Shown here piece by piece: positions 1 to 12,225 of a stretch of DNA of 16,860 nt. The position numbers and the translations under genes were made by a program. The notes under the pieces are model-generated. The model was not told the DNA's origin. It ran no database searches and worked only from the letters and a program-made list of their open reading frames with translations. Every line of letters begins with the position of its first letter. Position 1 is the stretch's first letter. The stretch covers positions 1 through 16,860 of the forward strand of contig JBMYPC010000062.1 of assembly GCA_049599895.1 (NCBI GenBank). Reading direction: 5' to 3'. Source of the DNA: Bacteriovoracaceae bacterium. Its GTDB lineage: Bacteria; Bdellovibrionota; Bacteriovoracia; Bacteriovoracales; Bacteriovoracaceae.

Positions 1-13
1 ACTTGGGATTGAT

Positions 14-55
14 TGTGGCCATGGAGGAAAATGGTTCGACTAAAAAATGGGGTGG
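14..55 (+). repeat. Junction/att-like motif copy 1 (element-end arm plus tRNA-His 3'-end core AATGGGGTGG)
   Basis: tgtggccatggaggaaaatggttcgactaaaaaatggggtgg aligns without gaps to 2942-2982. AAAAAATGGGGTGG (42-55) is identical to 10567-10580, which spans the tRNA-His CCA end. Confidence 0.85.
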
Positions 56-506
56 TGACCCCAACTGGAAGCAAACTTCTTTTCCTCGCTTCCAACTTAC
101 TAAAAACATTAAATTTGTAGCTCATCCAGCATACCTAGACAAGCAGTTCCTCCAGCAAAAATACCTTGAAGAAAAGCTCGGGGCGACGGAAATTGCCCAG
201 CTAATTGGTTCCTCCAAAACGACGGTTTTAAAATACTTGAAGCGATTTGGCATCCCCACAAGAAAGGTTGGGGCCAATCTTAGAAATCATAAAAATGGTG
301 TTGCTTATGGTCAGAAGATGGAGAAGCGAGAACTTCAGAATCATAAGAGGGAACAGGCCAATATTGATAAGATGAAGGAACTTCGTGCAAATGGCTTCAG
401 CTACTGGAAAATTGCTGAAGTCTTCAACTCTATGAAAATCCCCACCAAAACAGGGAAAGGGAAGTGGCATGCGAAGACTGTTCAGCAGATACTAGAGCGT
501 TTTTAG
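15..506 (+). CDS. Small protein with N-terminal HTH and stand-alone serine-recombinase DNA-binding (Recombinase/RD-like) domain; no catalytic domain
   Basis: HTH-like YLEEKLGATEIAQLIGSSKTTVLKYLKRFGI. RD-like AYG..L..HKREQANIDKMKELRANGFSYWKIAEVFNSMKIPTKTGKGKWHAKTVQQIL. Paralog at 2943-3437. Start is uncertain (TTG 3, GTG 15, ATG 21, all upstream of the att core). Confidence 0.8.
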   Translation: MAMEENGSTKKWGGDPNWKQTSFPRFQLTKNIKFVAHPAYLDKQFLQQKYLEEKLGATEIAQLIGSSKTTVLKYLKRFGIPTRKVGANLRNHKNGVAYGQKMEKRELQNHKREQANIDKMKELRANGFSYWKIAEVFNSMKIPTKTGKGKWHAKTVQQILERF

Positions 507-541
507 TGAGTATAAAGTTATATAAGTATTTACAGGGAGTT

Positions 542-614
542 AAATAGGGTAATCATGCTTTTAATGGGTTAATTTGGTGTTTATATTACCCTATTTCTAT
601 GATATTACCTTATT
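542..614. promoter_or_regulatory. Operator-like repeat cluster upstream of the Fic gene
   Basis: Perfect 12-bp inverted repeat AAATAGGGTAAT (542-553) / ATTACCCTATTT (585-596), plus a 12/13 direct copy ATATTACCTTATT (602-614) abutting the GTG start. Confidence 0.6.
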
Positions 615-1667
615 GTGAACTCTTTGAATCATAGCTATTTAGAAAGGCTCAAATTTGGTCAAACAGAATTAGGTACTCTAAGAAGTTTAGGTGAGTATAG
701 AGGCAAGCAAATTCTTTACTCGAAACAATCTCCAGAGGTTTTGAAGGGACTACAACAAGTGGCCGCCATAGAGTCAAGCGAGTCGTCAAATCGTTTGGAA
801 GGTATTGAGGTTCCTCACAAAAGAATTGAAAAACTTGTTTTAGAAAATACCAAACCAAAAGATCGCTCTGAGCAAAAAGTGGCTGGGTATAGAGATGCTT
901 TGTCTTTAATTCATGAGTCCCATGAGGAAATCCCATTCAGCTTGAATGTCGTACTACAGTTTCATAGTTTTATTTATAAATATATGCCCAACCCTGGTGG
1001 AAAATGGAAAAGCACAAATAATGAGATCATAGAAAAATATCCTGATGGTAAAACAAGGGTGCGATTTATACCTATTTCATCATTAGAAACGCCACAATAC
1101 ATGGAAGGGTTGGTAAAGAACTATGGTTTGTCTCTTGATAAGAATCTGGCGGATCCATTAGTTATTATTCCTTTGGCTATTCTTGATTTTTTATGTATCC
1201 ACCCTTTTTCAGATGGTAATGGGAGAGTTGCACGCTTACTAACTTTATTACTCCTTTATCATTTTGATTATAAAGTTGGACGGTATATAAGCCTTGAGCG
1301 AATTTTTGAGCAAACAAAAGAAGATTACTATCGAACACTTGAAGAAAGTTCTCAAGGTTGGCATGAAGGCAAACACGATATCATGCCTTGGGTAAATTAT
1401 TTTTGGGTTGCTTTAATGAAAGCCTACCAGGAGTTTGAAGAAAGAGTAGGAACTATAACTCCTGGGAAAGGGTCAAAAAGTAATCAAGTTCGTCAATATG
1501 TTAAAAAACAATTAAGGGCTTTTTCTATATCAGATGTTGAAAAGGAACTTCCTTGGATCAGCCGAGATATGATTAGGATAGTGCTTAGAGAAATGAGAGA
1601 TGAAAAAATAATCACATCAAAAGGAAAGGGCCGAGGGGCCAAGTGGGTTTTGGTTAACAAGAAATGA
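615..1667 (+). CDS. Fic-domain protein (putative AMPylase) with C-terminal winged-HTH-like region
   Basis: Canonical Fic motif HPFSDGNGRVAR. N-terminal inhibitory-type motif SNRLEG ((S/T)xxxE(G/N)). C-terminal FSISDVEKELPWISRDMIRIVLREMRDEKIITSKGKGRGAKW. Confidence 0.95.
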   Translation: MNSLNHSYLERLKFGQTELGTLRSLGEYRGKQILYSKQSPEVLKGLQQVAAIESSESSNRLEGIEVPHKRIEKLVLENTKPKDRSEQKVAGYRDALSLIHESHEEIPFSLNVVLQFHSFIYKYMPNPGGKWKSTNNEIIEKYPDGKTRVRFIPISSLETPQYMEGLVKNYGLSLDKNLADPLVIIPLAILDFLCIHPFSDGNGRVARLLTLLLLYHFDYKVGRYISLERIFEQTKEDYYRTLEESSQGWHEGKHDIMPWVNYFWVALMKAYQEFEERVGTITPGKGSKSNQVRQYVKKQLRAFSISDVEKELPWISRDMIRIVLREMRDEKIITSKGKGRGAKWVLVNKK

Positions 1668-2389
1668 TCATGATAAAGATAATGAAATTTAAACCAATCG
1701 CTCTTTTAATCTTGGGTTTCATTGGAGAGACCTACGCGTCATCTTGTCCCGAGGGAATGTATAGAGTTCAGGGGCATTATAGGCAGGCTCATTATAGAAA
1801 TGGGAAATATGTTAAGGGGGCAAATGTTTCACCCCACTGTAAACACTATAGGAGTGATGGCCCACTAAAACCTGAATTCAAGTTGAGGATGCCGAAGGGT
1901 TGGCCGCAGAAAAAAGAAAAGTTTAAAAAGTGTTCTAAAAAAAATCAAAAGAAAATAAATAAAGCATTATCTACTCTTCCAAAGATTTTAACAAATATAG
2001 GCAAATTAAAAATTCATTGTGCAGATAGGTCTGTGTACTTAGGTAATCCGGCGTCATCGGCTCCGAATGTGAAGATTATTGTTCTGTATGACTCAGCTTT
2101 CTCTGGAGATGTAAAGAGGTACATAGCACATGAACTAGCTCATATTCTTTATACAAGATTATCAGATGAAGAAAAAAAGATTTTGCATAAAGTGAGTTCT
2201 TGGACAGAAGATAAAAATGGAAGATTCAAGACAAAGAGGAAAAAGTTTTCTGAGCCTGATGGTGCAATCGATCCAGATGAGGACTTCTCGAACAATGTAG
2301 AGCACTACTTGTTTAATAAACGACATTTTAGAAGGGATTATCCTGAAATTTTTAAATGGCTAAAAAATCTATTTGGAGATAAAAAATGA
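1664..2389 (+). CDS. Secreted basic protein, putative zinc metallopeptidase (HExxH)
   Basis: Signal-peptide-like N-terminus (MKFKPIALLILGFIGETYA-S). YIAHELAHI motif and a downstream PDEDFSNNVEHYLF helix. ATGA overlap with the Fic stop. Confidence 0.75.
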   Translation: MIMIKIMKFKPIALLILGFIGETYASSCPEGMYRVQGHYRQAHYRNGKYVKGANVSPHCKHYRSDGPLKPEFKLRMPKGWPQKKEKFKKCSKKNQKKINKALSTLPKILTNIGKLKIHCADRSVYLGNPASSAPNVKIIVLYDSAFSGDVKRYIAHELAHILYTRLSDEEKKILHKVSSWTEDKNGRFKTKRKKFSEPDGAIDPDEDFSNNVEHYLFNKRHFRRDYPEIFKWLKNLFGDKK

Positions 2390-2868
2390 AATGGATGTTA
2401 ATGGCAACTATTTTTTTTAGTTGCAGTACTTATCAGAGTACACGAAAAAAAGAGATAGAAAGAAGATGGTTAATATTAGAACGTGCTATTGAAGATAGAT
2501 GGACACAAAAAGAAATTGTCAATTTATTAGGTAGTCCTGAAAGTAAAGATAGGGATAAAGAAGATGAGTCTTGGTCCTATAGCTCTGAAGAGAGTGGTGT
2601 TCAGGAGTGGTCAATTAGTTTTAATTTGAAGAGCAAAATAGTTTCATATATTAGTTATGGGCCTACAGGATCGCTAGATAATGATTTTACCTTGGATAAA
2701 ATTTTAAAACGTTGGGAAAGCCTGAACTGCAAGAAGAAGAAATCTAAAATGTATACAAGAGGGCACACTGTCTACCAGGATCAATATTACCTTTGTGATG
2801 GGAATAAAAGAATCGACTATAATCGTTACAATGAAGTGTCTTGGATTCGAGTGAGTAGTGGGAGATAG
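2386..2868 (+). CDS. Lipoprotein with SmpA/BamE-like motif
   Basis: Short signal peptide with lipobox MKWMLMATIFFS-C. WTQKEIVNLLGSPESK...ESWSY pattern. ATGA overlap with the upstream gene. Confidence 0.75.
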   Translation: MKWMLMATIFFSCSTYQSTRKKEIERRWLILERAIEDRWTQKEIVNLLGSPESKDRDKEDESWSYSSEESGVQEWSISFNLKSKIVSYISYGPTGSLDNDFTLDKILKRWESLNCKKKKSKMYTRGHTVYQDQYYLCDGNKRIDYNRYNEVSWIRVSSGR

Positions 2869-2941
2869 TTTAAGTCTTGTGTGGATCATCAAGCGGGGAT
2901 GGAAGTAAACAGGTTTCCTCCAGTTTAACTCTTTGAAATTT

Positions 2942-2982
2942 TGTGGTTCAGGAGGACAAAAGTTCGAGTAAGGAATGGGGTG
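2942..2982 (+). repeat. Junction/att-like motif copy 2
   Basis: tgtggttcaggaggacaaaagttcgagtaaggaatggggtg has the same 34-nt spacing from TGTGG to TGGGG as copy 1, and conserves GGAGGA, GTTCGA, TAA and AATGGGGTG. Confidence 0.8.
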
Positions 2983-3437
2983 ATCCAGTTTTTTCTTGGA
3001 GCTCTAGGTACCGCCAACTCCAAATGACTAATATCATTCAATTACCAGTCAAAAATGAGTGGAGAAATAAGGAGCTTTTATATCAAAAATACGTCGTTGA
3101 AAGGCGAAGTTTAAACGAGCTGGCGGTAGAATTTAAAGTTGCCAGACAGACAATTTCTAAGCAAATGAAGGAGTTTGGGATTTCTGTAAGGAAAAGCGGG
3201 GCAAATGTAGAAAGAAAGAGGGGACTTGCTTATGGTGAAAAGTGTCGAGATAGAAAACTAAAAGTACATAAAAGAGAAATGGAGAATATTCAAAAAATGA
3301 AAGACCTTCGAGATAAAGGTTTCAGTTATTGGAAGATTGCAGATATCTTCAATTCTATGGCGGTTCCTACAAAGACTCGTAAAGGTAAGTGGCATGCTAA
3401 GACAATTCATCAGATTTTACTAAGTAGTACTTATTAA
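2943..3437 (+). CDS. Small HTH + stand-alone recombinase DNA-binding domain protein (paralog of 15-506)
   Basis: 32 of 42 residues identical to the first copy over KMKDLRDKGFSYWKIADIFNSMAVPTKTRKGKWHAKTIHQIL. GTG start at the same offset from the att core. An internal ATG (MTNII) is an alternative start. Confidence 0.85.
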   Translation: MVQEDKSSSKEWGDPVFSWSSRYRQLQMTNIIQLPVKNEWRNKELLYQKYVVERRSLNELAVEFKVARQTISKQMKEFGISVRKSGANVERKRGLAYGEKCRDRKLKVHKREMENIQKMKDLRDKGFSYWKIADIFNSMAVPTKTRKGKWHAKTIHQILLSSTY

Positions 3438-4876
3438 TAAACTGTGTGCTTAGCATTTAGGTAGTTTAAAATATTAGTTAGGTCATCACTAGAAATATTG
3501 TTGTCATAAACAATCATTTCGATTAAGTCATAGTTTGCTCGAAATCTCTTGTCTGCATTAGTGACTGTCATGCAGCCTATCATTGCCCAGGTCGAAAGAG
3601 ATGAAGTATACTTCATCGTAAGGATTTGTAGTGAACTTGTAACATTAGAAGCACCAACATCCTCGCCTGTAGAACTAAAGCTTCCATTGTTTATAGCAAC
3701 CTGACCTGTTGTCGAACCAGTTCCATTAAAGCTTACAGTATACCCTCTATTGGTACTCAGAAAAAGGAATTCATTAAAGTCAGTAAAACCAAGGACAGCA
3801 TGTGCGCCATCTAAAACAGTTATTGCATTTTCGATAACAATAATAATTGTTTGAGCTGTGGATATGCTATTTAGGTCCATGCAGTTTCCGGTTGTATTAG
3901 CACCAGCATCTCCGGAAAACTGGATAGTACTTGAGCTCAAAGTAGGTCTGTCGCCGCCTGAGGCGGTTACATGATTATTATTGCCACTTTTATCTTGCCA
4001 ACATCCAACAGGGTCCGAGTTTGTACTTGCAACCGTACAGCCGGTGTCTTGAAAGATGGTGGAGCTGTCTGAAGCGTCAAGCCATATTGTATTTCCACCA
4101 ACCAAAGTAGGAATAATGTTTACTGTTAGATTAAAAGTGTCTTGGGCAGTTAAACTTCCATCCGATACTTCCAAGGTAATTGTAGCGCTACCATATTCAT
4201 TAGTGTTGGGAGTGAGTGTTGCTGTACAGTTTGGAGCTGTTCCTCCAAATGCAACATCTGAGTCGTTAATAAGGGTTGCGTTGGATGAACTCATTGTAAC
4301 ACTTGTTGCACAACTAAGACTTGACTCGGAGTCGTTAATTGTAAATGATAGTGCTGATGTTGAGTTATTTGCATTAATTGTTTGGTTCGATACATCTGAA
4401 ATCGTCGGTGCTGTATTTGGTGATGTTACCGTTAGTGTAAAGGTATCGCTTGAAGATAAGACTTCATCTGAAACTGTTAGGGTAATCGTTGATGTCCCAG
4501 ATTGCCCTGCTTTTGGGGTTAAGGTTACTGTGCAGTTTGGAGCTGTTCCAGCTAAAGTAATATCTGAAGAGTCAATCAATGTTGTATTTGAAGAAGAAGC
4601 AGATACACTAGTTGTACATCCTATAGTTGAATCTGTGTCAAGGATTACAAAACTTATGGCTCCTGTGCTTGTATTCATGACCGTTGATTGATCAGAAATG
4701 TCAGATATGTCTGGAATATCACCATCCACAGAACCGCTACCTGATGACCCTCCGTTATCAGTTGGTGTATAACCTTCATCTACGAATCCTTTATCCCCAT
4801 AGGGGTTATTACAAGCTGTTTGCAGCATAAGTACAAAGGTCATGATAAAAATTGTTAGACACCTTTTAAATATCAA
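3434..4876 (-). CDS. Surface lipoprotein / putative adhesin with two Ig/cadherin-like repeats and a C-terminal LamG/concanavalin-like domain
   Basis: TTG 4876 is preceded by GGAGG. Lipobox LQTA-C. Two ~102-aa T/S-rich repeats (shared GTAPNCT.TLTP and TITL.VSD). WLDASD...WQDKSGNNNH motif is typical of LamG-like domains. Confidence 0.8.
   Translation of the reverse strand: MIFKRCLTIFIMTFVLMLQTACNNPYGDKGFVDEGYTPTDNGGSSGSGSVDGDIPDISDISDQSTVMNTSTGAISFVILDTDSTIGCTTSVSASSSNTTLIDSSDITLAGTAPNCTVTLTPKAGQSGTSTITLTVSDEVLSSSDTFTLTVTSPNTAPTISDVSNQTINANNSTSALSFTINDSESSLSCATSVTMSSSNATLINDSDVAFGGTAPNCTATLTPNTNEYGSATITLEVSDGSLTAQDTFNLTVNIIPTLVGGNTIWLDASDSSTIFQDTGCTVASTNSDPVGCWQDKSGNNNHVTASGGDRPTLSSSTIQFSGDAGANTTGNCMDLNSISTAQTIIIVIENAITVLDGAHAVLGFTDFNEFLFLSTNRGYTVSFNGTGSTTGQVAINNGSFSSTGEDVGASNVTSSLQILTMKYTSSLSTWAMIGCMTVTNADKRFRANYDLIEMIVYDNNISSDDLTNILNYLNAKHTVY
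4120..4715 (-). repeat. Intragenic tandem duplication (two Ig-like units, 306-nt period)
   Basis: CAGTTTGGAGCTGTTCC occurs at 4227-4243 and 4533-4549. The protein repeats align. Boundaries are approximate. Confidence 0.85.
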
Positions 4877-4877
4877 A

Positions 4878-5723
4878 TTAAAGACCTCCAAAGCTAACTC
4901 CAAGTTTCACAGTTACCGACTCAAAGCTTTGCTTAAAACCAAAAACATTCACATCACCAGACTGAGCTTCGGCTTCCAAAGAATATCGGTCTGTGCTGGA
5001 ATCGATGTTTATTCCCGCAAAAACTTTCTTTGTATATGCACTCTCTATATTAACAGAAGGATTATTTTGTACGTGATATTGCCTATATCCGAGACCAACT
5101 TTAATACTTATATTATTTTTGCCCATAATAATGGGCATTTCTAGTGATGATCCTAGTTCAATATATAGAAGCTGGTCAGAGTCTATCTCTGCCACACCAT
5201 CAGCCAGTGTTTTTACATATGGAAGGGATTCAGTTCCAAGCTCTAGCTTCAGGCCAGTAAAACGAAAAAGTTTGAGTTTGATATTGGTACTCACACCAAA
5301 AATATTAGAAAATTTATTGTTAAGTTCATTGCTATCAGGATCTTGAAATATTAGTCTCTGAGAGTATCCAGTAATACCTACTCTTGTATCTTTTGAAAAA
5401 TAATAGTTATAAGACAACTTAAGACCAGGTGAGATATCACTGAAAACTGTTGTTTGTCTTCCTGATGCATTTTTTGATTCTATATTGCTGAAGCTCCATA
5501 TACTATTAAGACCCCAAGCATGAGGTGTTTTGCTTTTTGTTTTTGAGTATTGTGGCAATTTACTAATCACTCCTTCATCCTGAAACTGAATGTTATTTAG
5601 GTAAATTTGGTGTTCTGGCATATCAAGATTTTCGTTTTGAAACTTAATATCTTTAAAGTCCTCTTCATTTGCAAAAGAATTTATCGATAGAGAAAATATA
5701 AAAATCATCATAATGGACTTCAC
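4878..5723 (-). CDS. Exported protein, probable outer-membrane beta-barrel
   Basis: Signal peptide MKSIMMIFIFSLSINSFA. Alternating amphipathic strands (GLKLSYNYYF, KVGLGYRQY). C-terminal VKLGVSFGGL. Confidence 0.65.
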   Translation of the reverse strand: MKSIMMIFIFSLSINSFANEEDFKDIKFQNENLDMPEHQIYLNNIQFQDEGVISKLPQYSKTKSKTPHAWGLNSIWSFSNIESKNASGRQTTVFSDISPGLKLSYNYYFSKDTRVGITGYSQRLIFQDPDSNELNNKFSNIFGVSTNIKLKLFRFTGLKLELGTESLPYVKTLADGVAEIDSDQLLYIELGSSLEMPIIMGKNNISIKVGLGYRQYHVQNNPSVNIESAYTKKVFAGINIDSSTDRYSLEAEAQSGDVNVFGFKQSFESVTVKLGVSFGGL

Positions 5724-5779
5724 CTTGCCTCGCTTTGATTAGCATTCTTGATTCTTTCTTTTCTTATCTTTTTCCATGT

Positions 5780-6574
5780 TTAAAAAAACAATCCTATATT
5801 ATAATAATCATTACTTTCTTTTGATTTTAAAGTCATAGAAATGAGAGAAAGCAGTGCTTGCTCAAGGTGCTCTTTTTCAAAATCCCTACAAACCTCAAGA
5901 GCCTGTTTTAAACCTTTAATAACATCTGTTCTTGTATTTGAATCAACGATAAATCTAAACTTTTCAACTAGCTCTTTGGCAATTCTTCCATCAAGGTAGT
6001 AGATTTCTTCCTCAAGAAGGAAATTAGATTGAAAGAGTCTTGGTGGAATCATTTTTTGCTGAGCTGAACTTGGAATTCTTTTTTGTTCAACTTTTTTAAG
6101 AGAGGATAGGTATTCATGAGTTGGGATGATAAGTTTATCACCTTGCTTTATTAAGTTGATATCTTTTACTAGGGGATTTAGATGTTTAATTACAGAGATT
6201 AAGTTCCAAGGATTTTCATTTTTTAAAATATCTTTTAATATTCCAGATACAGTGTCTCCATATTTAACTTCATAGCTTGTAACTATATTTGAAGCATTTT
6301 TGCCAAACTCTAAAGGAATATTTATTTCATCATCAATATTAAGGATATTTAAATCTTTAATATGAGGATTTAAAGCCTCGAAACTCTTAAAGGCCGCTTT
6401 AAAAGGTCTAGATGAATAACTTACTTTTTTCCCATTTTGTTGTATGTACTGCATAATTATCTTGGAAAGTGATTCACCTTCTTGAACCTTGTGCTTTTGA
6501 ACATAATCCGCAGATGCAAACGAATCTAGACTTGCAAAAGTAGATATTGTTAATGGTAAAACTAGCTTCTTCAT
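5780..6574 (-). CDS. Exported protein with two LysM domains (possibly prematurely terminated)
   Basis: Signal peptide. LysM motifs HKVQEGESLSKI...LNPHIKDLNILNIDDEINIP and YEVKYGDTVSGI...LNPLVKDINLIKQGDKLIIP. Confidence 0.9.
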   Translation of the reverse strand: MKKLVLPLTISTFASLDSFASADYVQKHKVQEGESLSKIIMQYIQQNGKKVSYSSRPFKAAFKSFEALNPHIKDLNILNIDDEINIPLEFGKNASNIVTSYEVKYGDTVSGILKDILKNENPWNLISVIKHLNPLVKDINLIKQGDKLIIPTHEYLSSLKKVEQKRIPSSAQQKMIPPRLFQSNFLLEEEIYYLDGRIAKELVEKFRFIVDSNTRTDVIKGLKQALEVCRDFEKEHLEQALLSLISMTLKSKESNDYYNIGLFF

Positions 6575-6660
6575 AATCTAATCATCGAGATATAAAGACT
6601 AGAACTTAAACAAAGGTGTTGAAATGTAGCAGTTTAGAAAAATTTGCCTAGTATATGATA

Positions 6661-7398
6661 CTAGTTACCGAAACTGACACCCAGGTATAACTGGAGAGAT
6701 TTATTTTCTTGATCTATGTCGTCGACTTTTTGTGTATACGAGGAGTTTTTAATTCGAAAGTCGATACTTGAGCTTGAGAAATAATAGTTAAGCTCTGCGC
6801 CGAGTTCCATTTCTCCTGTTGAGGGTAGGGATTTCCCCTCATCTGTAGCTAGGAAAAAGTAGCGATAGCCTAAATCAAGCTTTGCTGTTAACCCAGATTT
6901 CTTTTTTCCTGTTATAGATGGCGTGAAAAATAATCCAAGATTAGTGCGATTAACTGATTTGATTTTAGCAATACTAAGCTCATCATTATTTATGTATATT
7001 CTAGAGTCCTTTCCTATTCTCAGCTCAGGTCTTAACCAGTATTTATAAAAGCTAATAATTGCATTAATACCATTAAGCTCAACTTCCGAATTATCGAGAG
7101 AGCCTGTAATTGGATTATTAAATCTAACTACTTCTGAGTAACCCTTAAGTCCTACCACAATACCTGAACTTGCCATATATAAATTTGAAAACTCAAATCC
7201 GCTCGAAGACTGTCCGGGTAAGGATGTTTTCGTAGAGTTCTCTGAGTCAGTAAAACTGATTAAGTAATAACTTTGCCTAAGGCCAAAAGAGAACTTATAG
7301 TTGGAGTAACCCTTTTGCACAAAAAGAGTATTTATTAATACTGTTAGTATTATGTATTTACTCATTTTTAATGTTAGTGTTTTGGCCATTCTTGGCAA
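6661..7398 (-). CDS. Exported protein, probable outer-membrane beta-barrel
   Basis: AGGAGG before TTG 7398. Hydrophobic signal segment. Amphipathic strands (KLDLGYRYFF, ELGAELNYYF). C-terminal LYLGVSFGN. Confidence 0.65.
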   Translation of the reverse strand: MPRMAKTLTLKMSKYIILTVLINTLFVQKGYSNYKFSFGLRQSYYLISFTDSENSTKTSLPGQSSSGFEFSNLYMASSGIVVGLKGYSEVVRFNNPITGSLDNSEVELNGINAIISFYKYWLRPELRIGKDSRIYINNDELSIAKIKSVNRTNLGLFFTPSITGKKKSGLTAKLDLGYRYFFLATDEGKSLPSTGEMELGAELNYYFSSSSIDFRIKNSSYTQKVDDIDQENKSLQLYLGVSFGN

Positions 7399-7573
7399 AT
7401 TACCTCCTTGAGAATAAACTTCTACCTTCTCATAATAATCAATCGGTAAACTAAGGCTTTTTAAAAAACTGACTTCTTAAGTTTGGAAAATCTTTCCTGT
7501 CTTTTTGTGGTTCTTTAGACAAAAAGAAAGGCACTACCTGGATGACTAAGTACCTAAGTGGGACTCCTAGATG

Positions 7574-7603
7574 AGACCCTTGTTCGAGGTACCGGGGTCT
7601 TTT
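7574..7603 (+). terminator. Possible intrinsic terminator/attenuator hairpin in the leader of the 333-aa gene
   Basis: AGACCCT (7574-7580) pairs with GGGGTCT (7594-7600), followed by a short T run. Confidence 0.4.
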
Positions 7604-7637
7604 CCTATAAACATTTCTTTTAACCAGGAGGATTGCG

Positions 7638-8639
7638 ATGCAAACCAAGAAAGAAAACTGTCTAGTTCAAACAAACGTAATTTTTAACGAGGAGGTCGAA
7701 ATGAAAGATTACAAACTTGAACAACTGGATGAAAACTATGGATCTTTAGTTGAAGAGATTCTGTGTGAAGTATTTCACATCGAAGATCAGGATGATTCTT
7801 TAGAAAGCATGCATGAAGCAGCAATTTATGATTTAAGAAGTGATAGTGAGCTTGAGATCTCTAAAGAAAGAGAACTTAGGAGTCTAGATGGTGACTCGGC
7901 ACCAACAGAGGACTTGAAGCTGTTGGAAGAGCAAGCTACTAGTTACTTTAAGAATCCTACAAAAGTCTTTACGCCATCAGAAGACGTTATTACAGATGAT
8001 GTTATTACTGGATTTATCCAAATTAATGCGGGGTTGAAATTCGATAAAGATGGAAAGCCGATAGAGATTTGGAAAAGCTATGGGCAGAAGTTAGTTGTAT
8101 CGCTTGATAGGCTCTACAACCCAGAGTCTATTAATTCTCAAGTAGAGTCATTGGGGTTTGAGTTATCAGATATGGTTAGAGTCGTATTCTATGGAGCACC
8201 TCTTTCGAAGATAGTCGGTTCTAGAGAATATGTAAAAGGTGAAAAGAAAACCCTAGAGCCTCTTTCAGATATCTACTCTAATATTCTATTAGCCATCCCG
8301 GCTGAAGAAAGAGGTGGTACTGATGATTCTATATTCTCTTTTGTTGATAGGTTAGTGAAGGACTCTATTCAAACAGGAGCAGAGTTGGGGCTTGATCGTT
8401 GCACTATCGGTCATTGGGAAATGACTCGTATTAGGTTGGATGAATTAAAGCAAGAAGAGGTTGAACTAAAAGAATTGAGAAGGATTGAAAAGATTCAAGC
8501 TGGATTTTCTCAAAGAAGGAAAAGTTATGTTGATAACTTTAAAGAAGCGAAGCAAGTAATCAAAGGACTGAATGATATGAGTCTTAAGGTTAGAGATCTA
8601 GTAGATGTCGATTCAAAGCTTATCTATCAGTTGCAATAA
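7638..8639 (+). CDS. Hypothetical acidic protein (element backbone); 3' end may be a deletion junction
   Basis: 333-aa ORF. Strong SD before both ATG 7638 (AGGAGG) and ATG 7701 (GAGGAGG). No recognisable family. Confidence 0.7.
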   Translation: MQTKKENCLVQTNVIFNEEVEMKDYKLEQLDENYGSLVEEILCEVFHIEDQDDSLESMHEAAIYDLRSDSELEISKERELRSLDGDSAPTEDLKLLEEQATSYFKNPTKVFTPSEDVITDDVITGFIQINAGLKFDKDGKPIEIWKSYGQKLVVSLDRLYNPESINSQVESLGFELSDMVRVVFYGAPLSKIVGSREYVKGEKKTLEPLSDIYSNILLAIPAEERGGTDDSIFSFVDRLVKDSIQTGAELGLDRCTIGHWEMTRIRLDELKQEEVELKELRRIEKIQAGFSQRRKSYVDNFKEAKQVIKGLNDMSLKVRDLVDVDSKLIYQLQ

Positions 8640-8881
8640 GTGGATCATGGTTAGATAGTGAAGGAGCTAAGAATGAAAAAACAACTTGGCACTCCGTAGC
8701 TGTATGGAAAAAGCTAGCAGACTTATGTCGTGATCATCTTAAGAAAGGTGATCTTGTGTTTGTTGAAGGTGAAATTACAAATTCATCTTGGACAGATGAG
8801 AATGGTAAAAAACACCAAACAAGTGAAATAAAAGCTAAACGTATTTTGTTTTTCGATTCATTTAAATTTACGAACAAGTAA
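8618..8881 (+). pseudogene. ssb: 5'-truncated single-stranded DNA-binding protein (OB fold), not in the ORF track
   Basis: Frame reads AYLSVAISGSWLDSEGAKNEKTTWHSVAVWKKLADLCRDHLKKGDLVFVEGEITNSSWTDENGKKHQTSEIKAKRILF, the SSB consensus. No start codon precedes it, there is an in-frame TAG at 8591, and the first beta-strand is missing. Confidence 0.88.
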
Positions 8882-8939
8882 AAAGCTGGAAGGTTACTAT
8901 AAATCGCTTGGTATTCCTAAGCTAAAAAGGAGACCGTCC

Positions 8940-9168
8940 ATGGACAAAAATACAAATGCTAACCCACGATCAATTTGATGAATACTATTCAGATGAAATT
9001 ACTTTAGAAAAGGCACTAATTAGAGTTGCCCCATTATTTGTAAATTCATTGATTAGGAAACACCCATCGCTGATGTTAGCGATTGTACTTGCTGACGTTG
9101 CATTAGAAGTTAGAAATAACAGGAAAGCGAAACGAAAGTTTGGCGAGTTAGTTCTAATAAAAAGTTAA
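8940..9168 (+). CDS. Small hypothetical protein, probably frameshifted near its start
   Basis: AAGGAG precedes ATG 8940, which is out of frame with the 70-aa ORF 8956-9168 unless one A is removed from the A5 run at 8946-8950. Confidence 0.5.
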
Positions 9169-9191
9169 ACAACAATACCTATTTCCAGCTT

Positions 9192-9221
9192 CCCTAGGGG
9201 AATTAATCCTCTGGGGTTTTT
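9192..9221 (+). terminator. Intrinsic terminator
   Basis: CCCTAGGGGA / TCCTCTGGGG stem (with G-U pairs) followed by TTTTT, just after the stop at 9168. Confidence 0.65.
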
Positions 9222-9248
9222 ATTAACCACTTACTATAGGAGTTAAGT

Positions 9249-9545
9249 ATGATTGAGCAAAGAGCTGAGCAAGCACAACAAAGTTATGAACCAGAAGTAG
9301 AAAAAGGCTTTTTAAGTGATGGAATCCTTTCACTAGGTGGAAGTGTATTCAGTACTGTTGGAAAAGTAGCACTCGCTATCGGAACAACGGGAATCCTAAT
9401 GTATCTGTTCTACCAACTTGAAGTAATTGTTGGATTAGGGACAGTACTTACAGGAGCTATTGCCATTTGTGGTGGTGTCGCCTCAATGGCCTTAGGTAAC
9501 AAAATGTCCACAGGAAGTTTCCTTGATGGATTATTAGGTGCCTAA
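9249..9545 (+). CDS. Small Gly-rich membrane protein
   Basis: AGGAG SD. 98 aa with two hydrophobic segments. Followed by a terminator. Confidence 0.7.
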   Translation: MIEQRAEQAQQSYEPEVEKGFLSDGILSLGGSVFSTVGKVALAIGTTGILMYLFYQLEVIVGLGTVLTGAIAICGGVASMALGNKMSTGSFLDGLLGA

Positions 9546-9551
9546 CTCACT

Positions 9552-9574
9552 AAGGGGCCTAGAGCCCCTTTTTT
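9552..9574 (+). terminator. Intrinsic terminator
   Basis: AAGGGGC-ctaga-GCCCCTT followed by TTTT. Confidence 0.8.
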
Positions 9575-9579
9575 ACTAA

Positions 9580-10584
9580 GCATGGTTAAAAAATAATAAA
9601 GAAATCGAACAAGTTAAAATTATCATGCAAAAATTTAATGAGCATCTTTCTTATAAGTCTCTTTTGGTTGAGCTAAGTGAGATGGGTGTAAAAAACAAAA
9701 CAGGAAAAGAATTTAATGTCCCATCATTGAAGAGACTTCTTACTAATAAAAAATATATTGGTAAGCTTCATGTTCCTACTGATTCCGATAATGAAGAAGT
9801 ATATGTTGATCTTCCATTTGGTGCTGTCATAGATAAGGAACTTTTTGATAAAACACAGGCCAACGTAGCTGTCGTAGAAAAATTAAGAGGATTTAATAAA
9901 AAGCGGTCTCGCTTATATGCCCTAACAGGTATTTTACACTTTGAGGATGGATCTCGTTTTACTGGTAATTCAGGTACTGCTCGAAATGGTGCACCAAAGT
10001 ATTATTACTACAACGCCAAAAACAAGGTTCGGGTTTCCGCTGATGAGATTGAATCTGCTGTATTTAACTCTTTAAGAGTCTTTGAAGACAACGAAAAAAT
10101 GATTGAGCATGCTAAGAAGGTTAAAAAAGAAACATTTTCGAAATTAGACTTCGTGAAAAATGAGATCTCTAAGAGAAAAAAAGAATTAAAAGAAATATCC
10201 AAGGAAGAAGACTCTCTAATGGAGACATTGAGAACTGCTGAAGGTGGAAAGTCTGGCCAAAGAGTACTTCGTTGGCTGGATGAACAGCTTGAAGGACTTG
10301 AAGAAAGGAAAAGATTAACTAAGGAGGCGATCTCAAGTCTTAAAAATGAGCAGCTAGATTTATCGGAAGCCAAAGTAGATGCAAATTCATTAAAGAAGTC
10401 ATTGAAAGTTGTTTTTGACCGCCTGGAGGCTTCAGATCCTGCAGTAAAAAGAGGAATAGCTCGTCAGTTATTTAAATCAGTTAAGTTATGTATGGGGAAT
10501 CGTCTTGAGGTTTCTTGGAATCTTCCGCTGAGCCGTGGCTCTGGCGGTAAGTATTCCTCGAATAAAAAAAAATGGGGTGGCTGA
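9580..10584 (+). pseudogene. Large serine recombinase (integrase), missing the N-terminal catalytic resolvase domain
   Basis: Frame is open from 9580 (TAA at 9577) and reads NKEIEQVKIIMQKF...SLKRLLTNKKYIG...AVIDKELFDKTQ (recombinase domain), YALTGIL...KYYYY (zinc-ribbon position), a coiled coil, then KRGIARQLFKSVKL. It ends inside the tRNA-His 3' end. Confidence 0.9.
10534..10580 (+). repeat. Junction/att motif copy 3 (tRNA-proximal att site)
   Basis: cgtggctctggcggtaagtattcctcgaataaaaaaaaatggggtgg aligns to copies 1 and 2 with a 2-nt and a 3-nt insertion. Confidence 0.8.
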
Positions 10585-10649
10585 CGGGGCTCGAACCCGC
10601 GACACCTAGAATCACAATCTAGTGCTCTACCAACTGAACTACAGCCACC
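10573..10649 (-). tRNA. tRNA-His (GTG)
   Basis: Minus strand reads GGTGGCTGTAGTTCAGTTGGTAGAGCACTAGATTGTGATTCTAGGTGTCGCGGGTTCGAGCCCCGTCAGCCACCCCA: G-1:C73 pair, GTG anticodon, T-loop GTTCGA and encoded CCA. Confidence 0.98.
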
Positions 10650-11478: not shown

Positions 11479-12225
11479 TTGAAAGTGAACTTTAAAAAAC
11501 CGAAAGTCGTATTCAGTGACTTTGATGGAACCCTCACTCAGGGGCATGTGATTACCCCTGAGCTCTTTGAAATTTTAAATCATTGTCATTACCAAGACGC
11601 AGACTTTGTTATTCATACAGGGAGATCTCTATCTTGGGGACATTGTCTGCTTTCTCATCTTCCTCATCTGAAATCAGTGATTACAGAAGGGGGAGGAGTT
11701 TATGTCACCAGAGATCCAAAGAATGGCTTAATGACTGAACATTTTCTTGTTGAAAAAGAAAGTTATGAGAAGCTTGAAGTGGTTACTCAAGAGCTTTTAA
11801 AGAAGTTTCCCATTCTTGAACTCTCAAGAGATTCGATTGGAAGAATCACTGATCGAGCGATTGAAAAAAAAGACTTATTAGATCTTTCAGTTCTTAAAGA
11901 CGTTAAGGCTTTTTTAGATGAACATGAAGTGACTTATTCTGTTTCAAATGTTCACCTCAATTTTTGGTGTGGTGAAGTTGATAAGTATAAGGCCTTACTA
12001 AAGTTTATTGATCGCGAATATGACAATGTCTCTGAAGATGACTGTTGGTTCTTTGGGGATAGCCTCAATGACGAACCCGTCTTTAAAGACCTTAAACACA
12101 CCGTAGGGGTTCACAACCTTAATCTTATCAAAGAAGAATTTAAAGATCTTCCAAGTGTGATCTTAGAAGACCCTGAACATACCGGTCCCACGGGAGTTCT
12201 GGCGTTTTTAAAAGACAATCTTTAA
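11479..12225 (+). CDS. HAD-superfamily hydrolase, subfamily IIB-like
   Basis: Motif I FSDFDGTL, motif II HTGRS, motif III K (VDKYKA), motif IV GDSLND. Confidence 0.92.
   Translation: MKVNFKKPKVVFSDFDGTLTQGHVITPELFEILNHCHYQDADFVIHTGRSLSWGHCLLSHLPHLKSVITEGGGVYVTRDPKNGLMTEHFLVEKESYEKLEVVTQELLKKFPILELSRDSIGRITDRAIEKKDLLDLSVLKDVKAFLDEHEVTYSVSNVHLNFWCGEVDKYKALLKFIDREYDNVSEDDCWFFGDSLNDEPVFKDLKHTVGVHNLNLIKEEFKDLPSVILEDPEHTGPTGVLAFLKDNL

Follow-up and report, generated by a model that had tools for sequence, protein, structure and literature searches.

Decayed tandem islands at a Bacteriovoracaceae tRNA-His gene point to large serine recombinases whose genes are split at their own attachment core

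The canonical large serine integrases, those of phiC31, Bxb1 and A118/LI and the SPbeta enzyme SprA, belong to a class of recombinases that are major tools of genome engineering and for which the question of what sets the direction of the reaction is central. Here we describe islands of a large serine recombinase (LSR) family that lie stacked at the 3' end of a tRNA-His gene on contig JBMYPC010000062.1 (assembly GCA_049599895.1) of a Bacteriovoracaceae bacterium; the whole stretch analysed, 16,860 nucleotides (nt), is referred to as the window. The closest published case is that of the tandem ssrA islands of Dehalococcoides with their serine integrase DsiB (McMurdie et al., 2011; PMC3146451), whose authors, in the part of the article available to us, guess that dsiB is complete only on the circle or beside a neighbouring island carrying a 3' fragment. 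Two further systems (for the second, see also PMC7253208) are related in other ways: the tycheposons of Prochlorococcus, which according to the accessible portion of their description are mostly of the tyrosine-recombinase type (LSR in 27/937) and have partial tRNA flanks of ~40 nt (10.1101/2020.12.28.424599), and the 'suicidal' tyrosine integrases of the SSV type in archaeal viruses and plasmids, in an account whose available part states self-disrupting recombinases to be confined to archaea (PMC8371274). Our literature search, at the level of result listings, found no paper on a serine integrase gene split by its own insertion in the manner described below.

What can be concluded about the nature of this array? 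The window is an entire contig (C62) of an assembly of 266 contigs with 37.7% G+C, and our comparison makes it probable that it represents the tRNA-proximal end of decayed tandem LSR islands, in which the core of the attachment site attP lies inside the recombinase open reading frame (ORF) and the split strips a tail of ~150 residues with two helix-turn-helix (HTH) modules from the enzyme, likely altering or abolishing its activity. The units are delimited by a motif of which a first-pass annotation had noted three copies, two leading into paralogous ORFs and one into tRNA-His, and an exact search with the pattern GTGG-N4-GGMGG-N8-10-TCGA-N-TAA-N3-6-ATGGGGTG matches at exactly these places (15-54, 2943-2982 and 10535-10579). 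None of 200 shuffled windows matched, a figure that is weak taken alone because the pattern was derived from those very copies; the better control is the scan of the whole genome, where a relaxed pattern found, in all 266 contigs, the three copies of the window and the end of contig C183, a 55-mer identical to the start of the window, and nothing else. The crossover core comprises 9 bp, the last 7 nt of tRNA-His plus AA, and this bare core, AATGGGGTG, occurs 21 times genome-wide. The part of the tRNA that is repeated in the window is TGGGGTG, 7 nt only, in line with the duplication of a few nucleotides noted before. Copies 1 and 2 lead into ORFs 3-506 and 2943-3437, with a mutual identity of 48%, and copy 3 into tRNA-His (gtg) on the minus strand. 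An equivalent arm (TGTGG-N4-GGAGGAC ... AAATGGGGTG) adjoins the tRNA-His genes of further genera within the family (G015, G021, G041, G136, G156), which lends the motif independent support. The motif's left arm consists of the final ~13 codons of the LSR gene and serves also as an attP half-site.

The evidence for a split gene comes from relatives, ten of whose tRNA-His loci were compared with the window. The recombinase body and the tail form one ORF that crosses the core, the tail corresponding to its 3' ~150 codons, and as attP lies within the recombinase ORF, the gene is severed upon integration. In G015, a single 14-kb island occupies tRNA-His; a complete LSR of 541 amino acids (aa) adjoins the tRNA, and the tail ORF follows directly after the attL core in the frame of the recombinase, with no ATG, GTG or TTG ahead of its conserved segment. 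The undivided form exists as well: a search for longer tail-bearing proteins yielded P0001, a protein of 730 aa with PF00239 resolvase and recombinase domains and the tail at its C-terminus, to which the G015 recombinase aligns from residue 49. In P0002 (665 aa), which also carries PF00239, body and tail are joined by CGRGG...EKWGG, the residues encoded by the G015 arm. Further natural fused ORFs are present in L103 (693 aa), L034, L035 and L036, and among the best 150 representatives at least 8 are fused and 31 are tail-only, while the closest bodies end at the joint. The 'HTH-RD genes', which the first-pass annotation had taken for separate paralogous genes accompanying the motif, are actually the 3' part of the recombinase ORF.

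Matches to P0001 were found in 115 of 237 genomes of the family. The recombinase bodies adjoin the 3' ends of tRNA-His, Met, Asn and Val genes and of tmRNA on the opposite strand, the tails lie 7-40 kb upstream of the bodies on the same strand, and the direct repeats of attL and attR measure 7-17 bp in relatives, with up to 12 nt of tRNA therein; one tmRNA locus (G122) holds three tails and a recombinase. Excision was simulated with a script that fuses the attR flank bearing the recombinase with the attL flank bearing the tail, and these joins produced a single uninterrupted ORF in 10 of 11 elements (7/7 in the set including unit 3 of the window, 3/3 at tRNA-His/tmRNA and 0/1), a fraction that is not a probability because the elements are related to each other. 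The joined elements span four or more target classes and two frames of the core. The rejoined ORFs encode 667-728 aa in nine relatives and 484 aa in unit 3, whose body lacks the N-terminus.

Substantiating the coding nature of the tail, the ratio of nonsynonymous to synonymous substitution rates (dN/dS) between tail ORF 2 and its counterpart in the metagenome locus L093 is ~0.2; both copies now reside in units with a dead recombinase. The tail is fused to a body at 3 of 48 distinct loci; of the 45 unfused tails, 25 lack any ATG in the stretch from the preceding stop to the conserved domain, and in several the frame opens right at the core. The residues immediately past the core are conserved (tail alignment A1). 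A structure model of the tail (pLDDT 73, pTM 0.40) displays two three-helix modules. The fold search with this model gave no match in the Protein Data Bank (PDB) at E<=0.001, the best weak rows being paired-domain and mariner bipartite HTHs, and the label 'bipartite HTH' is thus based on Pfam and secondary structure. No relative was found in a metagenome scan with P0002, and a scan of viral contigs yielded one weak partial match only, giving no sign of a phage-borne family.

Together with a partner within the first codons of the tail, the GG(A/C)GG element of the motif makes up an inverted repeat. GGAGGAC pairs with GTCCTCC in G021, G041 and G136, CTGGCGGT pairs with its own complement in G156, and in unit 3 of the window TGGCGGTA (10542) pairs with TACCGCCA (3009), 23 nt to the left and 26 nt to the right of the core. 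An exact inverted repeat is present in 9 of 11 elements, its midpoint falling within the core; the offsets are 23-24 nt on the left and 26-28 nt on the right in five tRNA-His elements and one tRNA-Met element, in the second tRNA-Met element the repeat is 8 nt long with offsets of 34/28 nt, and the two elements at tmRNA show repeats of 12 nt at a distance of 8-13 nt from the core. The arms co-vary by class and, judged by sequence, constitute an attP site of the LSR type with inverted half-sites about a central crossover. Of the right arms, the one past junction 2 pairs with the left arm of unit 3 and the one past junction 1 does not, and junction 2 is a hybrid, of the GGAGGAC class on the left and the ACCGCCA class on the right. 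Such a mismatch means that one unit ends there and a different one begins, just as would be expected from tandem insertion.

Copies 1 and 2 (23-54 and 2951-2982) place GGAGGA 18 nt ahead of the core, copy 3 and the relatives 23-24 nt. Each of the two shorter copies holds a TAA that terminates the recombinase frame ahead of the core. The half-site spacing of attB-type LSR sites was reportedly worked out by Rutherford et al. in 2013, and we considered whether the 5-nt-shorter spacing mimics such a half-site; this idea was left aside, as an internal junction in G156 retains the 23-nt spacing.

An independent view of the junctions is offered by L093, where the coincidence of breakpoints with the motif had been set as a test beforehand. 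The similarity between the window and L093 begins at the first base of the core (2974) and runs rightward, with none to the left, and on the tRNA side it begins at the A-run just ahead of the core. The host genes right of tRNA-His share ~35-57% protein identity with those of the window, mostly 42-47%. Within the L093 island, the tail is 84% identical to tail ORF 2 at the DNA level and a 195-nt recombinase fragment is 92% identical, while the Fic gene (79% protein identity) lies on the opposite strand and the parts of the island come in a different order. The divergence thus coincides with the core, and together with the hybrid junction 2 it bears out the earlier view of distinct units stacked at the tRNA-His 3' end and joined by a short core.

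Table 1. Features of the tandem array in the window
Feature	Position	Strand	Description
Junction 1	1..54	+	decayed recombinase 3' end, then core AATGGGGTG at 46-54; contig begins here
Tail ORF 1 ('HTH-RD 1'), left end of unit 2	48..506	+	frame open from the TGG of the core
Unit 2 cargo	615..2868	+	Fic-domain protein 615-1667; secreted HExxH-motif protein 1664-2389; lipoprotein-like ORF 2386-2868
Junction 2	2925..2982	+	frameshifted 3' remnant of unit 2 recombinase, then core at 2974-2982
Tail ORF 2 ('HTH-RD 2'), left end of unit 3	2976..3437	+	right-arm repeat TACCGCCA at 3009-3016
Unit 3 cargo	3434..9545	.	cadherin-like surface protein, LysM protein, further ORFs (Pfam and frame translations)
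Recombinase remnant, unit 3	9625..10584	+	recombinase domain and coiled-coil region; ends KKWGG-stop inside tRNA
Junction 3 (attR)	10535..10579	+	left attP arm, TGGCGGTA at 10542-10549, core at 10571-10579
tRNA-His (gtg), intact	10573..10648	-	ARAGORN; Rfam RF00005, 63 bits; last 7 nt including CCA inside core

The array in the window (Table 1) is a fossil, as neither unit has a working recombinase. Unit 2 (55-2973) retains ~60 nt of a frameshifted recombinase 3' end, and unit 3 (2983-10570) a recombinase without the catalytic domain: its ORF 9625-10584 matches PF07508 (E 1.9e-10, profile positions 13-98 of 102) and aligns with P0002 from residue 187 onward only, the Pfam scan detected no PF00239 resolvase catalytic domain in it, and upstream of it no remnant of such a domain was seen in any frame. 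The serine recombinase named as the driver in the first-pass annotation is supported, with the reservation that no catalytic domain is left in this window. The zinc ribbon PF13408 had no match in the window at E<=0.01, just coiled-coil-like chance matches, and the zinc-ribbon region of the window and G015 recombinase proteins holds no Cys pairs. The remnant at junction 1 reads CGHGGKWFD-stop in a frame that differs from that of the tail, and that at junction 2 reads EILW ... CGSGGQKFE-stop, with GGAGGAC at 2951. Both tail ORFs combine a partial match to Recombinase (PF07508) with a weak HTH_7 match; for tail ORF 1, which shares 56% identity with the C-terminal end of fused P0001, the former covers profile positions 3-50 of 102 (E 7.7e-6), and there are weak matches to HTH_7/HTH_23. 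As to the cargo, the Fic gene of unit 2 is recognized by Pfam with E 1.4e-13, and two ORFs of unit 3 look, in our reading of their translations, like candidate beta-barrel outer-membrane proteins. Unit 3 also contains, at ~8603-8880, a frame for an oligonucleotide-binding (OB) fold resembling the single-stranded DNA-binding protein SSB (TWHSVAVWKKLAD ...), which has no usable start codon and is probably a leftover of replication or transfer genes of the island.

That the array extends to the left of the window, as had been anticipated, is supported by contig C183, which in reverse complement opens with the 55-mer of the window and then diverges, and by a 419-nt unitig of the likely source run X1 that ends in window positions 1-55 and has a depth of 22 versus ~9 for the window (~2.4-fold). 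The contigs of run X1 contained no joints and showed only that this unitig precedes the window, and run X2 holds the window as scattered low-depth pieces only, with no information on variants. The left-flank genes of four relatives gave no syntenic match that would locate the left boundary of the array in the assembly. In the reverse complement of C183 (55-130), the sequence past the common 55-mer is neither tail nor tRNA, and ~4.2 kb further on a tail ORF occurs that contains an in-frame TAA and lacks a core ahead of it. Concerning the order of arrival, the newest unit would be the one next to the tRNA, later arrivals presumably inserting on the tRNA side.

How might such an element work? Integration would leave the recombinase body beside the tRNA and the two-HTH tail of ~150 residues at the far end of the island, and the loss of the tail would likely alter or abolish the activity of the inserted enzyme, thereby acting as a built-in switch. 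The free circle, or else a tandem junction, would be the sole source of a complete enzyme of ~670 aa, which would be the integrating form, while the truncated enzyme would trap the island, such that islands pile up and decay. The role of the severed tail is what we infer here, and we put forward only tentatively, as somewhat less probable than its negation, that the split serves as a state sensor: the integrating full-length enzyme would be encoded on the circle or at a tandem joint alone, and the chromosomal form could either not excise or would reverse direction, leaving the islands trapped. Stacks could possibly form by attL x attR recombination between two chromosomes.

Several points weigh against the reading of the window as split-gene LSR islands. 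To our knowledge, canonical LSRs do not integrate into attR, and the excision, expression and activity of the element are proposals drawn from its sequence. Many tails sit in units without any recombinase, namely in G177, in G013 and at tRNA-His in 7 metagenome loci; an ATG inside the core opens the tail ORF in the G177/G013/L087/L089 group, and the recombinase-less units are bounded by repeats of 32-110 bp of tRNA trailer and terminator and not by a recombinase 3' end, which the model fails to explain. The join in the metagenome element L142 at tRNA-Asp is off by one base, its tail being itself frameshifted further on, and in L033 body and tail are neighbours yet not one ORF. Finally, body and tail of P0002 have different nearest relatives, and this protein may hence stem from a tandem junction and not from a circle.

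A minimal unit of 1.5 kb is found at L087:8200-9872, where a lone tail ORF is flanked on each side by the tRNA-His trailer, terminator and core, in copies of 83 bp that match exactly.

The persistence of intact tails in units devoid of a recombinase is also what would be expected if the 'HTH-RD' ORF were an independent accessory gene that happens to lie beside attL, for instance a directionality factor, repressor or att-binding helper, and the common frame a by-product of attP overlapping two genes. The ATG in the core that heads the ORF in the G177/G013/L087/L089 group, the dN/dS of ~0.2 between copies in recombinase-dead units and the 31 of the best 150 representatives that consist of the tail alone all agree with it. 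However, an accessory gene has no need for 10 of 11 joins that are in frame and stop-free, for naturally fused proteins in several lineages, for conserved residues directly past the core, or for the want of an ATG in 25 of 45 unfused tails and of ATG, GTG and TTG alike in G015, and we therefore deem it unlikely, while granting it some weight.

Far less probable still is an integron-like platform (a likeness raised in the first-pass annotation), in which a resident recombinase at the tRNA would capture promoterless cassettes at a site regenerated each time. While the junctions do repeat in one orientation, with varying cargo and several units per site, none of the 19 ORFs of the window is a tyrosine recombinase, the sole recombinase remnant has no catalytic domain, the units are multi-gene with genes on both strands, and the junction arm is half of an inverted repeat with its partner across the core; the islands of the relatives each bring their own recombinase at the tRNA-side end. 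An equally slim chance is left to the copies of the motif being a local duplication, or the common 5' regions of paralogous genes, without site-specific recombination: the 5-nt-shorter spacing and the TAA shared by copies 1 and 2 would fit, but copy 3 is followed by the tRNA and no paralogue, the tails are just 48% identical and the cargo of the units differs, and the same ends recur in further genera, the breakpoint in L093 falling at the core. Both of these explanations were rejected, in view of the recombinase proper to each island and of breakpoints exact to the core, and the split LSR gene is the reading that we retain.

The same genome holds other members of the family. Its sole other LSR, an intact protein of 524 aa with the layout seen in the other recombinases (C73:11995-13569, minus strand), reads into the 3' end of a tRNA-Met gene (11940-12016); the island continues past the contig end. 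A pairing of this recombinase with a tail on C105 would be in frame, yet it involves a core of 6 nt only and separate contigs and was left uncounted. The tail ORF on C112 (minus strand, ~1482-1916) is of the tmRNA class and follows TTGGTGGAGG, which copies the 3' end of tmRNA in the form known from G122; this gives the genome at least three target sites for this recombinase family. Tail ORFs on C105 (~1740-1930) and C214 (~3300-3540) are preceded by a common repeat (GTTGTTAAGAATTC.GAG.TGTTTAATTCGCTT.GCTCA ...). In G015, left of attL (L019:840-1080), a G+C-rich stretch of ~240 nt stands out in an A+T-rich genome and could represent either a repeat or a structured RNA.

With matches to the fused protein in 115/237 genomes, these islands appear to be a main route of island gain at the tRNA and tmRNA genes of the predatory Bacteriovoracaceae. 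They escape programs that look for tRNA-fragment repeats or whole integrases, the repeat of the recombinase-type elements being just 7-17 bp long and the tail being annotated as a small 'recombinase family' ORF. Were insertion indeed to remove a whole DNA-binding domain, this would offer a testable direction switch that operates without a separate factor.

How, then, does the family relate to the systems described so far? With the canonical LSRs it shares the architecture of resolvase and recombinase domains, short att sites with inverted half-sites and the small identity between attP and attB. In the LSRs known to us, by contrast, attP lies outside the integrase ORF, protein genes or intergenic sites are targeted, and there is no C-terminal bipartite HTH tail. 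Like the tycheposons, as far as the available part of their description goes, the islands are stacked at tRNA genes by repeated site-specific insertion and leave degenerate remnants behind; unlike in tycheposons, 7 nt of tRNA are repeated in the window and the recombinase gene itself is split. The SSV-type integrases, in the accessible portion of PMC8371274, resemble our elements in having attP inside the integrase ORF, a gene split to the ends of the element, and captured elements that accumulate at tRNA genes. They are, however, tyrosine recombinases of archaea, whereas the recombinase domains found in the window and P0001 are of serine-recombinase Pfam families alone, and it is their catalytic part that is cut off, whereas here catalytic and core DNA-binding parts stay together and the C-terminal domain alone is removed. 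A split LSR gene counters the restriction of self-splitting recombinases to archaea as stated in that portion, and if the state-sensor reading is true, the family would give the archaeal 'suicidal' integrases a counterpart among the serine recombinases of bacteria. The closest likeness is to the DsiB islands, going by the available part of PMC3146451: tandem islands lie downstream of a small RNA gene and are delimited by direct repeats that briefly copy its 3' end, the LSR gene sits at the edge of the island and overlaps the repeat, and some units come without integration genes ('accretion'). In the window there are likewise three cores, and the recombinase remnant ends inside the tRNA. The host here is Bacteriovoracaceae, and the targets are the extreme 3' ends of tRNA-His, Met, Asn, Val and Asp genes plus tmRNA; none of the families of the six-gene integration module (the small recombinase DsiA, RecF-like, ParB, Mom and others) turned up in Pfam matches among the 19 ORFs of the window. 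The overlapped part of DsiB is called divergent and probably non-functional in that part of the article, whereas in the Bacteriovoracaceae islands it corresponds to a conserved two-HTH domain of ~150 aa that also occurs in fused ORFs.

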